The notes below the pieces were generated by a model, which made no database searches, had not been told where the DNA came from, and saw nothing but the letters and a program-made list of their open reading frames with translations. A program made the translations under genes and the position numbers. From assembly GCF_055900595.2 (NCBI RefSeq), contig NZ_CM148325.1: a stretch of DNA of 64,000 bases; one strand, 5' to 3'. Shown piece by piece: positions 1,416 to 64,000 of the stretch; position 1 is the stretch's first letter, and the number at the start of each line of letters is the position of its first letter.

Positions 1416-2840
1416 ATGACCAAAAAACTCCATATTAAAACCTGGGGCTGTCAGATGAACGAGTACGATTCATCGAAGATGGCCGATCTGCTGGATGCCA
1501 CCCACGGCTATCAACTGACCGACGTGGCGGAAGAAGCGGATGTGCTGCTGCTGAACACCTGCTCAATCCGCGAGAAGGCTCAGGAAAAAGTCTTCCATCA
1601 GTTGGGTCGCTGGAAACTGTTAAAAGAGAAGAATCCAGACCTGATTATCGGCGTCGGCGGCTGCGTGGCATCGCAAGAAGGCGAGCACATTCGCCAGCGC
1701 GCCCACTATGTTGATATTATTTTTGGGCCGCAAACGCTGCACCGTCTGCCGGAGATGATCAACTCCGTACGCGGCGACCGCAGCCCGGTTGTAGATATCA
1801 GCTTCCCGGAAATCGAGAAGTTTGACCGTCTGCCGGAACCGCGTGCCGAAGGACCAACCGCGTTTGTCTCCATCATGGAAGGCTGCAATAAATATTGCAC
1901 CTACTGTGTGGTGCCTTACACCCGTGGTGAAGAGGTAAGCCGTCCTTCCGACGATATTCTGTTTGAGATTGCCCAGCTTGCGGCTCAGGGCGTGCGTGAA
2001 GTCAACCTGCTCGGTCAGAACGTGAACGCCTGGCGTGGTGAGAACTACGACGGCACCACCGGATCGTTTGCCGATCTGCTGCGTCTGGTTGCGGCGATCG
2101 ACGGGATCGATCGTATTCGCTTTACCACCAGCCATCCGATCGAATTCACCGACGATATCATCGAAGTGTATCGCGACACGCCGGAGCTGGTGAGCTTCCT
2201 GCATCTGCCGGTTCAGAGCGGTTCCGATCGCATTCTAAACCTGATGGGACGTACCCACACGGCGCTGGAGTACAAAGCGATCATCCGTAAATTGCGTGCG
2301 GCGCGTCCTGATATTCAGATCAGTTCTGACTTCATTGTCGGCTTCCCGGGTGAAACCACCGAAGACTTCGAAAAAACGATGAAGCTGATTGCCGACGTCA
2401 ATTTCGACATGAGCTACAGCTTTATCTTCTCCGCTCGTCCAGGAACGCCTGCCGCCGATATGGTTGATGATGTTCCGGAAGAAGAGAAGAAGCAGCGTCT
2501 GTATATTCTGCAAGAGCGCATTAATCAGCAAGCGATGGCATGGAGCCGCCGTATGCTCGGCACCACCCAGCGTATTCTGGTAGAAGGTACATCGCGTAAG
2601 AGCATCATGGAGCTTTCCGGTCGTACTGAAAATAACCGCGTGGTCAACTTCGAAGGTACGCCGGATATGATCGGTAAATTCGTCGATGTAGAAATTACCG
2701 ACGTCTACCCGAACTCTCTGCGCGGTAAAGTGGTGCGAACTGAAGATGAAATGGGTCTGCGCGTGGCAGAAACACCGGAATCGGTGATTGCCCGTACCCG
2801 CAAAGAAAATGACCTGGGCGTGGGTTATTATCAGCCGTAA
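1416..2840 (+). CDS. miaB: tRNA-i6A37 methylthiotransferase (radical SAM)
   Basis: 474 aa; radical-SAM motif CNKYCTYC; N-terminus [19 protein letters not shown]. Confidence 0.95.
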
Positions 2841-2845
2841 TTCTC

Positions 2846-2880
2846 AGGCCCGCCGTTCCGGTGGGCCTTGTTTTTTCTCT
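2846..2880 (+). terminator. Hairpin plus T-run after miaB (intrinsic terminator or attenuator before ybeZ)
   Basis: GC-rich inverted repeat aggcccgccgttccggtgggcct followed by tgttttttctct. Confidence 0.5.
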
Positions 2881-2992
2881 CTTTATCCCCATCTTTATCG
2901 CAATGCTTGCGCCTTTTTCCTGTGGCGTGAATAATTTCCTTATAGGCCGGTGAATGTTCAGCTTCCGGCGGCATACAGATAAGAGGAACGGT

Positions 2993-4033
2993 TTGAACAT
3001 AGACACTCGCGAAATCACTCTGGAGCCAGCAGACAACGCACGTCTGTTGAGCCTGTGCGGCCCGTTTGATGACAACATCAAACAACTCGAACGCCGTCTC
3101 GGCATCGAAATCAATCGCCGCGATAATCATTTTAAACTGACCGGCCGTCCGATTTGCGTCACCGCTGCGGCAGACATTCTGCGTAGCCTGTATGTCGATA
3201 CTGCCCCGATGCGCGGTCAGATTCAGGATATCGAGCCGGAACAGATCCACCTTGCGATTAAAGAAGCGCGCGTGCTGGAACAAAGTGCGGAGAGCGTGCC
3301 GGAGTATGGCAAAGCGGTCAATATCAAGACCAAACGCGGTGTAATTAAACCGCGCACGCCAAACCAGGCGCAGTACATCGCCAATATTCTCGACCATGAC
3401 ATTACCTTCGGCGTTGGCCCGGCGGGTACGGGTAAAACCTACCTGGCAGTGGCTGCGGCAGTTGATGCCCTGGAGCGTCAGGAAATTCGCCGTATTCTGC
3501 TGACTCGTCCGGCGGTAGAAGCCGGTGAGAAACTGGGCTTCCTGCCTGGCGATTTAAGCCAGAAAGTGGACCCGTATCTGCGCCCGCTGTATGACGCGCT
3601 GTTTGAAATGTTGGGCTTTGAGAAAGTCGAGAAGCTGATTGAGCGCAACGTTATTGAAGTCGCACCACTGGCCTATATGCGTGGTCGTACGTTGAACGAC
3701 GCGTTTATCATTCTTGATGAGAGCCAGAACACCACCATCGAACAGATGAAGATGTTCCTGACTCGTATCGGTTTTAACTCAAAAGCGGTTATTACCGGCG
3801 ATGTCACGCAGATCGACTTACCGCGTAATACTAAATCAGGTTTACGTCACGCTATCGAAGTGTTAGCCGATGTCGAAGAGATCAGCTTTAACTTCTTCCA
3901 CAGCGAAGACGTGGTTCGTCACCCGGTGGTAGCGCGTATCGTTAACGCTTATGAAGCCTGGGAAGAAGCCGAACAAAAACGAAAAGCGGCGCTGGCAGCA
4001 GAACGCAAGCGCGAAGAACAGGAACAAAAATGA
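2993..4033 (+). CDS. ybeZ: PhoH-like ATPase
   Basis: Walker [12 protein letters not shown] at 2993 is preceded by aagagga (SD) and gives 346 aa, which is the length I recall; the in-frame ATG at 2954 (359 aa) lacks an SD. Confidence 0.85.
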
Positions 4034-5489: not shown

Positions 5490-7028
5490 ATGGCTTTTGC
5501 CTCATTAATTGAACGCCAGCGCATTCGCCTGCTGCTGGCGTTATTATTCGGTGCCTGCGGAACGCTGGCCTTCTCTCCTTACGACGTCTGGCCTGCGGCG
5601 ATTATTTCGCTGATGGGGCTTCAGGCGCTGACCTTTAACCGCCGTCCACTCCAGTCTGCCGCTATTGGCTTTTGCTGGGGATTTGGCCTGTTTGGCAGCG
5701 GTATTAACTGGGTCTATGTCAGCATCGCGACCTTTGGCGGAATGCCTGGCCCAGTTAACATCTTCCTGGTGGTGCTGCTGGCAGCGTATTTGTCGCTGTA
5801 TACCGGACTGTTTGCTGGCGTGCTGTCGCGTCTGTGGCCGAAAACCACCTGGCTACGCGTGGCGATTGCCGCCCCTGCTCTCTGGCAAGTGACCGAGTTT
5901 CTGCGCGGTTGGGTGCTGACTGGCTTCCCGTGGTTGCAGTTCGGCTATAGCCAGATTGACGGTCCGTTAAAAGGACTGGCACCGATAATGGGCGTGGAAG
6001 CCATTAACTTCCTGCTGATGATGGTAAGCGGCCTGCTGGCACTGGCGTTGGTCAAACGCAACTGGCGTCCGCTGGTGGTGGCCGTCGTGCTGTTTGCCCT
6101 TCCCTTCCCGCTACGTTACATCCAGTGGTTTACCCCGCAACCGGAGAAAACCATTCAGGTATCGATGGTTCAGGGCGACATTCCGCAATCGCTGAAGTGG
6201 GATGAAGGCCAGCTTCTCAATACGCTGAAGATTTACTACAACGCAACGGCACCGCTGATGGGCAAGTCATCGCTGATTATCTGGCCGGAGTCGGCGATAA
6301 CCGACCTGGAAATTAATCAGCAGCCGTTCCTCAAAGCACTGGACGGTGAGTTGCGTGATAAAGGTAGCTCGCTGGTCACCGGGATTGTCGACGCGCGTCT
6401 CAATAAGCAGAACCGCTACGATACCTACAACACCATCATCACGCTGGGTAAAGGTGCACCGTATAGCTACGAATCAGCCGATCGCTATAACAAAAACCAT
6501 CTGGTGCCGTTTGGCGAGTTTGTCCCGCTGGAGTCGATTCTGCGTCCGTTAGCACCGTTCTTTGACCTGCCGATGTCGTCATTCAGCCGTGGACCATATA
6601 TCCAACCACCGCTGTCGGTAAATGGTATTGAGCTTACTGCGGCTATTTGCTACGAGATCATTCTCGGCGAGCAAGTGCGCGATAACTTCCGCCCGGATAC
6701 CGACTATCTGCTGACTATCTCCAACGATGCGTGGTTTGGTAAGTCTATTGGCCCATGGCAGCACTTTCAGATGGCGCGAATGCGTGCGCTGGAGCTGGCG
6801 CGCCCGCTGCTGCGTAGCACCAATAATGGCATCACGGCGGTGATTGGTCCGCAGGGTGAGATTCAGGCGATGATCCCGCAATTCACCCGCGAGGTGTTGA
6901 CCACTAATGTGACGCCGACTACCGGACTCACACCGTACGCACGTACCGGCAACTGGCCGCTGTGGGTGCTGACGGCACTGTTTGGTTTTGCCGCTGTGCT
7001 GATGAGACTGCGAGCACGTCAACGTTAA
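5490..7028 (+). CDS. lnt: Apolipoprotein N-acyltransferase
   Basis: 512 aa; multi-TM N-terminus followed by a carbon-nitrogen hydrolase domain; synteny. Confidence 0.95.
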
Positions 7029-62361: not shown

Positions 62362-63450
62362 ATGCCTCACAATCCTATCCGCGTCGTCGTTGGCCCTGCT
62401 AACTACTTTTCTCATCCCGGCAGTCTCAATCACCTGCATGATTTTTTCACTGATGAACAACTTTCTCGCGCAGTGTGGATCTACGGTGAACGTGCACTTG
62501 CCGCGGCGCAAACCAAACTTCCATCGGCGTTTGAACTGCCAGGAGCAAAGCATATTTTGTTTCGCGGTCATTGCAGTGAAAGCAATGTGCAACAACTGGC
62601 GGCTGAGTCCGGTGACGATCGCAGCGTGGTGATTGGCGTCGGCGGCGGCGCACTGCTCGACACCGCGAAAGCCCTCGCCCGCCGTCTCGGTCTGCCGTTT
62701 GTTGCCGTTCCAACGATTGCCGCTACCTGCGCTGCCTGGACACCACTCTCTGTCTGGTACAACGATGCCGGACAGGCGCTACATTATGAGATTTTTGACG
62801 ACGCCAATTTTATGGTGCTGGTGGAACCGGAGATAATCCTCAATGCGCCGCAAGAATATCTGCTGGCAGGAATCGGTGACACGCTGGCGAAATGGTATGA
62901 AGCGGTGGTGCTGGCTCCTCAGCCAGAAACGCTGCCGCTAACCGTGCGGCTGGGAATCAATAATGCGCAGGTCATTCGCGACGCCTTGTTAAACAGTAGC
63001 GAACAGGCGCTTGCCGATCAGCAAAATCAGCAGTTAACGCAATCATTTTGCGATGTGGTCGATGCGATTATCGCCGGAGGCGGAATGGTCGGTGGTCTGG
63101 GCGATCGTTTTACGCGTGTGGCGGCGGCCCATGCCGTGCATAACGGTCTGACCGTTTTGCCGCAAACCGAGAAGTTTCTCCACGGCACCAAAGTCGCCTA
63201 CGGAATTCTGGTGCAAAGCGCCTTGCTGGGTCAGGATGATGTGCTGGCGCAATTAACCGGGGCGCATCAGCGTTTTCATCTGCCGACCACGCTGGCGGAG
63301 CTGGAAGTGGATATCAATAATCAGGCAGAGATCGACAAAGTGATTGCGCACACCTTGCGTCCGGCGGAATCCATTCATTACCTGCCGGTCACGCTGACAC
63401 CAGATACGTTGCGTGCAGCGTTCGAAAAAGTGGAATCGTTTAAAGTCTGA
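62362..63450 (+). CDS. ybdH: Iron-containing alcohol dehydrogenase / glycerol dehydrogenase-family oxidoreductase (hydroxycarboxylate dehydrogenase)
   Basis: 362 aa; NAD-binding motif GVGGGALLDTAKA. Confidence 0.85.
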   Translation: MPHNPIRVVVGPANYFSHPGSLNHLHDFFTDEQLSRAVWIYGERALAAAQTKLPSAFELPGAKHILFRGHCSESNVQQLAAESGDDRSVVIGVGGGALLDTAKALARRLGLPFVAVPTIAATCAAWTPLSVWYNDAGQALHYEIFDDANFMVLVEPEIILNAPQEYLLAGIGDTLAKWYEAVVLAPQPETLPLTVRLGINNAQVIRDALLNSSEQALADQQNQQLTQSFCDVVDAIIAGGGMVGGLGDRFTRVAAAHAVHNGLTVLPQTEKFLHGTKVAYGILVQSALLGQDDVLAQLTGAHQRFHLPTTLAELEVDINNQAEIDKVIAHTLRPAESIHYLPVTLTPDTLRAAFEKVESFKV

Positions 63451-63459
63451 CGTACAGAT

Positions 63460-63657
63460 TTAGCAGCAGCGCGCGCCACCTTTTCCACCGTAGCGCGCGT
63501 CCTGCCGCTCACGGAAAAACTCCTCGTAGGTCATCGGCGTTTGATCGGGATGGTTAACCCGCATATGTTCGACATAGTTGTCGTAATCGGGCATACCAAT
63601 CATCAGCTTCGCTGCCTGACCTAAATATTTTCCGGCTTTTGCCAGTGAATCAAACAT
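63460..63657 (-). CDS. ybdD: Small DUF466 protein encoded downstream of cstA
   Basis: 65 aa from the ATG at 63657 ([33 protein letters not shown]...GGARCC). Confidence 0.85.
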
Positions 63658-63718
63658 CAATACCTCCGGTAATCAGATTGCTGAGAGAGTGCATTAATAG
63701 CTATCAACGCGCTCGGTC

Positions 63719-63795
63719 AGTCCCCTCGCCCCACCGGGGAGAGGGTTAGGGTGAGGGGGAACCCTAGGCACTACGCCAACATCCCCCTCACTCTG
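63719..63795. repeat. GC-rich imperfect palindromic intergenic repeat (BoxC-like; family assignment uncertain)
   Basis: tcccctcgccccaccggggagagggttagggtgagggggaaccc...atccccctcactct: G/C-tract dyad symmetry in the cstA-ybdD spacer. Confidence 0.45.
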
Positions 63796-63798
63796 ACT

Positions 63799-64000
63799 TT
63801 AGTGCGCGCCTTTCGCCTGCGCCACGATCTCCTCGACATTTTCCGGCATTGGCTCATACGGCGTTTCTTTCGCCGTTGGCTTCGGCTCTTTCAATGCCGC
63901 CAGTGCCGTCTTAATCGAGAACAGCGCCAGAACCACCACGACCACCATAAAGAAGATGGTTAACCCGGCATCCAGACGGTTGTTGAACACCAGTTGCGCC
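63799..64000 (-). CDS. cstA: Carbon starvation / pyruvate transporter CstA family, C-terminal fragment (gene continues beyond the window end)
   Basis: Reading frame open to the window edge; hydrophobic C-terminal TM segment (TIFFMVVVVVLALF); the ybdD-after-cstA arrangement matches known synteny. Confidence 0.7.
   Translation of the reverse strand, partial: AQLVFNNRLDAGLTIFFMVVVVVLALFSIKTALAALKEPKPTAKETPYEPMPENVEEIVAQAKGAH

Follow-up and report, generated by a model that had tools for sequence, protein, structure and literature searches.

Genes and features of the cstA-ybdD spacer

The stretch of DNA considered here, referred to as the window, is 64,000 nt long and is from E. coli. At its end, and read from the minus strand, the last part of cstA is followed by ybdD, and the spacer between them is 141 nt in length, with its coordinates, and the sequence quoted from it in the original prediction, being found as given there. 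The spacer region is 100% identical to that of E. coli strain EC42405 (NZ_CP043414.1). Constitutive pyruvate uptake requires both CstA and YbdD (PMC5847655). What had been proposed for the spacer is that a G/C-rich palindrome of 77 bp, of BoxC-like type, was inserted in it, that it may form a strong structure in mRNA and that it creates a spurious open reading frame. On all main points this was correct. The features are collected in the table.

Table. Features of the cstA-ybdD spacer and its surroundings; positions are those of the window except in the last row
Feature	Position	Strand	Remarks
ybdD	63460..63657	-	65 aa, YbdD/YjiX family, PF04328; ATG at 63655-63657
cstA-ybdD spacer RNA	63658..63798	-	H1 and BoxC inner hairpin, predicted to be closed by a GUCAG/CUGAC stem
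Inserted block, 45 nt, AACCCTCTCCCCGGTGGGGCGAGGGGACTGACCGAGCGCGTTGAT	63703..63747	+	From alignment; present in window and K-12 alleles
BoxC repeat unit (assigned)	63709..63761	+	Left flank GCGCTCGGTCAGT, TMECO core, trailing GAA; from alignment of 7 E. coli copies
Unit A, CCCCTCGCCCC	63722-63732	+	Pairs with B or C
TMECO type A 'mm' core	63723..63758	+	CCCTCGCCC-CACCG-GGGAGAGGG-TTA-GGGTGAGGG-G; sole consensus match in window
Unit B, GGGGAGAGGG	63736-63745	+	Pairs with A
Four-G-tract stretch	63736..63759	+	Contains HPG1 21-mer GGGAGAGGGTTAGGGTGAGGG; template strand of cstA/ybdD
H1, other arm	63745..63760	+	Third BoxC block GGGTGAGGGGG in window allele
Unit C, GGGTGAGGGGG	63749-63759	+	Pairs with A or D
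ORF, 70 codons	63751..63963	+	GTG start within block C; antisense to cstA 3' end
H1, locus-specific arm, TCCCCCTCACTCTGAC	63782..63797	+	Directly follows cstA stop; pairs with 63745-63760
Unit D, CCCCCTCACTC	63783-63793	+	Pairs with C
cstA 3' end	63799..64000	-	Pyruvate/proton symporter; continues beyond window; TAA stop at 63799-63801
REP in other alleles	K-12 632100-632150; REL606 fetched locus 1468-1496		

The dyad symmetry is real, as an inverted-repeat search returned both an inner hairpin, CCCCTCGCCCC / GGGGAGAGGG at 63722-63745, and outer arms of 16 nt that are 88% complementary (63745-63760 with 63782-63797), and there is an alternative pairing in which 63722-63731 is matched to 63749-63758. 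The 77 bp are nevertheless a composite. The repeat itself is about 53 nt (63709-63761), and the right arm (63782-63797) is older and locus-specific, being present in all Escherichia alleles whether or not they have BoxC. The dispersed unit excludes unit D and the 22-nt loop that precedes it, and the third block of the repeat, GGGTGAGGGGG, is homologous to AGAGTGAGGGG / GAGAGTAAGGGG in alleles that are BoxC-less. Within the core the order is C-block, loop 1, G-block 1, loop 2 and G-block 2. The four-G-tract stretch is the only G-quadruplex-type motif within the 64 kb, and as the G-rich strand is the template, the mRNA has its C-rich complement and cannot carry the motif. The 21-mer GGAGAGGGTTAGGGTGAGGGG has one occurrence in the window at up to 3 mismatches, and 100 shuffles gave 0 matches.

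The 70-codon frame is indeed spurious: it lacks a Pfam match, its start is within the repeat, and in four further alleles, those of K-12, REL606, APEC17 and HS-02, it ends after 7-18 codons. That a real small-protein gene is involved is scarcely credible, for despite the open frame with its GTG start and the antisense transcription that occurs here in K-12, it is wholly antisense to the conserved 3' end of cstA and begins inside a repeat.

Identity of the repeat

What is the palindrome? Judged by sequence, that at 63709-63761 is almost certainly a copy of the E. coli dispersed intergenic repeat BoxC, for which 'BoxC-like' was an apt description. Its 63723-63758 (+) is an exact fit, and the one regex match in the window, to the consensus CCCTCNCCC-N3-6-GGGNGAGGG-N3-GGGNGAGGG which, with a classification into types, was put forward for TMECO by Holder et al. 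(NAR 2015; PMC4666352). These authors equate TMECO with the earlier BoxC, which Maher's group had rediscovered as a potential intrastrand triplex (PIT) element (PMC4666352). The names themselves, in the form in which PMC4666352 and PMC2267715 relay them, go back to Bergler 1992 and Bachellier in the 1990s for BoxC, and to Hoyne/Maher 2000 for PIT. BoxC is quoted in PMC2267715 as being 56 bp long and present in 32 copies in E. coli; from the present alignment of copies, a common unit of about 53 nt emerges. The window copy is of type A, in that its second loop is TTA, and has a G mismatch ('mm'), which is the commonest K-12 subtype. Like the TMECO of Holder et al. it is intergenic, multi-copy and at a strain-variable locus, but it differs from others in that one arm of an older hairpin doubles as its third block. 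The core is shared with the K-12 fabI-ycjD copy, CCCTCGCCCCTCTGGGGAGAGGGTTAGGGTGAGGGG, which is no. 9 of Holder et al. (PMC4666352) and which differs from the window copy in loop 1 only. The K-12 copy at cstA-ybdD has a G>A in block 3 (GGGTGAGAGGG), with which the consensus is broken, and the window form is intact. The fabI/envM locus is, we take it, where BoxC was first described.

The same sequences were found independently by Kaplan et al. (NAR 2016; PMC5100583) as a group, HPG1, of G-quadruplex sequences, put forward as a G-quadruplex-hairpin-duplex switch and defined by the 21-mer GGGAGAGGGTTAGGGTGAGGG with at most 1 mismatch and by a conserved C-rich 5' flank. Both are found in the window, with the 21-mer an exact match at 63737-63757, and the K-12 copy they list is at the orthologous site: HPG1 no. 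19, midpoint 632058 on the minus strand, 51 nt from cstA (PMC5100583 Table 1). Its spacer is 182 nt, in contrast to 141 nt in the window, which is without a REP and an 11-nt duplication. The table of 23 K-12 copies of Holder et al. (PMC4666352) omits cstA-ybdD, probably because the K-12 G>A breaks their consensus. The site is thus one already catalogued, and the element a known one, so that the observation is correct but ordinary.

Identity with REP/BIME or with ERIC was considered and has next to no probability. The window element is, as they are, a palindromic enterobacterial intergenic repeat, and a REP does occur in this spacer in K-12, where it adjoins BoxC, and in REL606, but that REP (GCCGGATGCGGCGTGAACGC..TATCCGGC) is a separate block, without shared sequence, and is missing from the window, in whose spacer the REP consensus stem (of GCCGGATG...CATCCGGC type) was not found. 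BoxC and REP/BIME are alike in being short palindromic E. coli intergenic repeats that give stable RNA hairpins and that can occupy the same intergenic sites. They are unrelated in sequence, however, BoxC having three G/C blocks and REP a simple stem. A scan at E-values up to 10 gave no Rfam family at or above its gathering score; the best match, Antizyme_FSE (21.2 bits, gathering score 40, E = 0.064), is a chance resemblance.

Copies elsewhere in E. coli genomes

With 63718-63798 as the query for sensitive blastn against 5,426 complete E. coli genomes, 5,418 of them had matches, at a median of 15 places per genome and a maximum of 26. There are 17 in K-12 derivatives and only 4 detectable in EC42405, the strain identical to the window here. 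Published copy numbers are 22-32 for BoxC and, in K-12, 23 for TMECO. Megablast, which was used alongside, returned the orthologous locus only. The element is thus not unique and, as described below, not unstructured either; it had been suggested beforehand that its being both would count against its identification as a recurrent repeat. All seven of the other copies that were fetched are intergenic: wcaK-wzxC, ybcF-purK, gntP-fimH, yghO-glcC, ytfQ-ytfR, zntA-tusA and fabI-ycjD. Some copies are within operons, at ytfQ-ytfR, wcaK-wzxC and pstB-pstA. The consensus of the aligned copies, of about 53 nt, is GCNCGGTCAGT-CCCCTCGCCCC-N3-GGGGAGAGGG-TTA-GGGTGAGGGG-AA(AA).

The copy at zntA-tusA is near fixation (4,949/5,426 genomes), and the ybcF-purK BoxC allele is rare, with 238 genomes having it and the whole spacer being replaced by REP arrays in the other alleles. 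A clean filled/empty junction was sought at these two loci, and none was usable. At the convergent ybcF-purK site BoxC and REP arrays are alternative occupants.

History of the locus and its alleles in Escherichia

The description of the element as inserted holds, because 45 nt (63703-63747) are missing from the Escherichia outgroups. The genomes in which they are absent are E. albertii, E. whittamii, Escherichia sp. MOD1-EC7003, 'E. coli' SCPM-O-B-8794 and E. coli Nord1. In the mRNA sense the block follows the 3' arm of H1 and precedes the next AGC, and it comprises the BoxC left flank, the C-block, the loop and the first G-block. The repeat has its third block in the old H1 arm, where AGAGTGAGGGG has become GGGTGAGGGGG. 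In the outgroup alignment the inserted 45 nt show no visible target-site duplication. A cognate RAYT-type transposase is not known for BoxC. The spacers of E. albertii, E. whittamii, MOD1-EC7003 and SCPM-O-B-8794, of 118-126 nt, have H1 and a REP and are without a TMECO; directly after the cstA stop codon the outgroup H1 has the form AGAGTGAGGGGG-loop-CCCCTCACTCT.

BoxC is present at cstA-ybdD in about 75% of E. coli genomes (4,045/5,426). The spacer is highly polymorphic, sampled E. coli alleles having lengths of 111, 112, 127, 141, 143, 153, 172 and 181 nt, and the occurrence of at least seven sampled spacer alleles (111-181 nt) agrees with the hypervariability of TMECO loci described by Holder et al. 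(PMC4666352). A REP is found in K-12, REL606, APEC17, Nord1 and all the Escherichia outgroups sampled. It is cleanly missing from the window, where the 29-nt block would sit between 63691 and 63692, and by megablast the REP-less window form is that of at most about 374 of the 5,426 genomes. A tandem duplication of 11-12 nt (TCGCCAACAT..) in the H1 loop was seen in K-12, REL606, PS1P and HS-02, and not in the window (63782/63783).

The alleles of TOE51 and isolate 127 (111-112 nt) retain 14 of the 45 nt (CCGAGCGTGTTGAT) and have the old hairpin H1 intact; they may be precursors, partial deletions or mosaics. In these two, some 20-45 nt upstream of ybdD, there is also a hairpin, GCCCTCTTAATTCAGGAGGGC, followed by ATTTG. 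In position and type of sequence it matches the hairpin seen in Citrobacter, Salmonella and Klebsiella, whose spacers are of 55-63 nt, and it has been lost from the window. This hairpin with its ATTTG is probably the ancestral element of the cstA-ybdD junction, a weak terminator or attenuator.

The same spacer in other genera

Species-representative genomes with YbdD were scanned, giving 80 loci, and TMECOs were counted over 76 species representatives. Strict TMECOs are in the cstA-ybdD spacer of 11 of the 76, in 6 of them as inverted pairs. The genera with such spacers are Enterobacter, Lelliottia, Leclercia, Phytobacter, Pluralibacter, Cedecea and Pseudocitrobacter. Inverted pairs constitute near-perfect long palindromes, as in E. 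hormaechei, for which the folding energy is -79.6 kcal/mol, and the spacer of E. cloacae M-7 has an apparent collapsed TMECO pair. Positions and orientations of these TMECOs differ from those of the E. coli copy, and so separate events were involved. Their recurrence suggests either a hot spot or homology-guided copying, with the qualification that related genera may share one event.

In TMECO-less spacers of the other Enterobacteriaceae, the median length is 59 nt, and a CCCTC...GAGGG or CCTCC...GGAGG pair, in simple-hairpin arrangement, is present in 24 of 65, among them those of Citrobacter (GCCCTCTCC-TGGTG-GGAGAGGGC-GTTTG) and Salmonella arizonae. The plain GCCCTCTCC...GGAGAGGGC hairpin of the 55-63-nt spacers in Citrobacter, Salmonella and Klebsiella is the sequence of the TMECO Watson-Crick stem. 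Could it be that, in Enterobacteriaceae, BoxC/TMECO elements preferentially land in the cstA-ybdD spacer or arise there by conversion, since the arms of the resident hairpin resemble the BoxC blocks? This strikes us as rather improbable. If it were so, BoxC would spread not by transposition but by being copied, through homology or template switching, into hairpins that resemble it, and a first handle on BoxC mobility would have been gained.

Structure of the spacer RNA, mapped 3' ends and possible roles

Folding supports the proposal of a strong mRNA structure. The minimum free energy of the spacer is -65.1 kcal/mol for the mRNA strand (z = -3.98) and -64.1 kcal/mol for the other strand (z = -4.98), and for neither was any of 200 shuffles as low. 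With short flanks included, the window allele has -68 kcal/mol, the K-12 and REL606 alleles, with REP added, -81 to -86 kcal/mol, and BoxC-less alleles -44 to -60 kcal/mol. As a strong hairpin at the H1 position is there in BoxC-less alleles also, BoxC only adds to structure. The 60-nt BoxC core alone, as single-stranded DNA, was no better than shuffles (z = -1.0 and +0.1), and the significant dyad signal depends on the locus-specific partner arm. After the H1 and BoxC hairpins, the spacer RNA has a third, AT-rich, hairpin and then GGAGG as the ybdD Shine-Dalgarno sequence.

Where do RNAs end in relation to this? In the K-12 Term-seq data of Adams et al. 2021 (PMC7815308 supplements), there is a 3' end at 632098 (+) in LB at OD 2.0, which is 10 nt past the BoxC inner hairpin, 84 nt upstream of ybdD and equivalent to about 63712 (-) in the window, though the signal is weak, with about 1,700 average reads and in one condition only. 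A further, Rho-dependent, 3' end that is antisense to cstA is at 631994 (-) (PMC7815308), about 7 nt past H1 and equivalent to about 63804 (+) in the window, and its position implies that transcription coming from hcxA continues through ybdD and the spacer and reaches the 3' end of cstA. Both ends are from the K-12 allele, which is unlike that of the window in its extra REP, 11-nt duplication and block 3 G>A. That RNA ends just past the structure on both strands fits a barrier to exonucleases, or partial termination, in the manner of REP, and it is tentatively, with the balance somewhat against it, that we regard the BoxC/H1 structure as an RNA 3'-end barrier. For REP itself, acting as a barrier to 3' exonucleases is an established role, reportedly described by Newbury and Higgins in 1987.

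How might such a barrier operate? With BoxC next to H1, the folded RNA has two adjacent G/C hairpins closed by the short GUCAG/CUGAC stem, and this composite may act as a stable roadblock without having a sequence-specific regulatory role. It would mark or protect the transcript 3' end between cstA and ybdD, and could be the same obstacle for antisense read-through RNA coming from hcxA. At the level of DNA, the element may make the spacer prone to rearrangement. Taken as a whole, the best explanation, and one in which our confidence is high, is a BoxC copy beside an older hairpin, with a putative roadblock role in RNA.

The foremost alternative is that the BoxC copy is without effect on expression of cstA or ybdD and is retained because it is harmless, which we consider to have not quite an even chance. 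About 25% of E. coli genomes do without the element here, so that it is dispensable, and it is missing from all the Escherichia outgroups sampled. YbdD (WP_000460431.1) is identical in every allele fetched, whether the element is present or absent. Published functional tests were negative: in the summary given in PMC4666352, Maher's laboratory found that these elements act neither as promoters nor as terminators and leave RNA polymerase unaffected. Nor did Holder et al. see any bias in position or function with respect to genes, be it for gene class or for distance (PMC4666352). At odds with neutrality are the K-12 RNAs of both strands that end just past the structure and, to the extent that it reflects selection and not tolerance, the recurrence of TMECOs in the same spacer in other species.

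A second alternative has the DNA itself as a switch: by folding into an intrastrand triplex or a G-quadruplex, the G-rich strand would stand in the way of RNA polymerase or of the replisome. This is unlikely, and that it would regulate read-through into ybdD or provoke rearrangements is to be doubted to a like degree. The four G-tracts and the C/G/G three-block layout are suggestive of it, as is the high polymorphism of the spacer. Moreover, type A mm oligonucleotides of nearly the same sequence formed a triplex in vitro by CD and NMR, with a Tm of 70-82 C, and TMECO loci are hypervariable (PMC4666352), while a K+/Mg2+-dependent transition between G4 and hairpin was seen in vitro (PMC5100583). 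However, on addition of the complementary strand duplex forms (PMC4666352), the earlier work cited in that paper is reported there as having found no polymerase effect in vivo, and the block 3 G>A in K-12 breaks the TMECO consensus at a site that is otherwise retained.

Very improbable is a canonical Rho-independent terminator of cstA. A G/C-rich hairpin does start 2 nt past the stop codon, and cstA and ybdD are separate single-gene units in RegulonDB to the extent that this is conveyed by Table 1 of PMC5100583. However, neither hairpin is followed by a U-run. A scan of both strands for terminators was empty, with neither a U-tract terminator nor a sigma-70-like promoter in 63400-64000, and the spacer lacks a promoter-like site for ybdD. 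The joint involvement of CstA and YbdD in pyruvate uptake favours their co-expression and thereby argues against a terminator, and other BoxC copies are inside operons.

Significance and additional observations

For annotation the value is small: the G/C-rich palindrome and the false ORF are accounted for, and the spacer is flagged as strain-variable. What is added here to the known copy is its exact boundaries, the gain of 45 nt beside an older hairpin and the spectrum of alleles, together with the recurrence of TMECOs in this spacer across further genera and the connection made with RNA 3' ends mapped in K-12. Natural alleles exist that have BoxC, REP, both or neither, and they constitute a test bed for mRNA ends, mRNA stability and the CstA:YbdD ratio, and the same set is suited to asking how BoxC is gained and lost.

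Some features of the records fetched are of separate interest. The annotation of E. coli B REL606 gives cstA as a pseudogene with a frameshift (fetched locus 1614-3086). Beyond the end of the window, EC42405 has between cstA and entH a gene for a 140-aa hypothetical protein (fetched locus 5559-5981), and in K-12 the cstA-entH gap, of 180 nt, has no annotated gene. Near-identical enterobacterial ybdD or cstA-ybdD sequence is present in records of Streptomyces sp. DH24 (a 465-bp contig) and of a Bacillota MAG, where contamination or misbinning is most likely involved.
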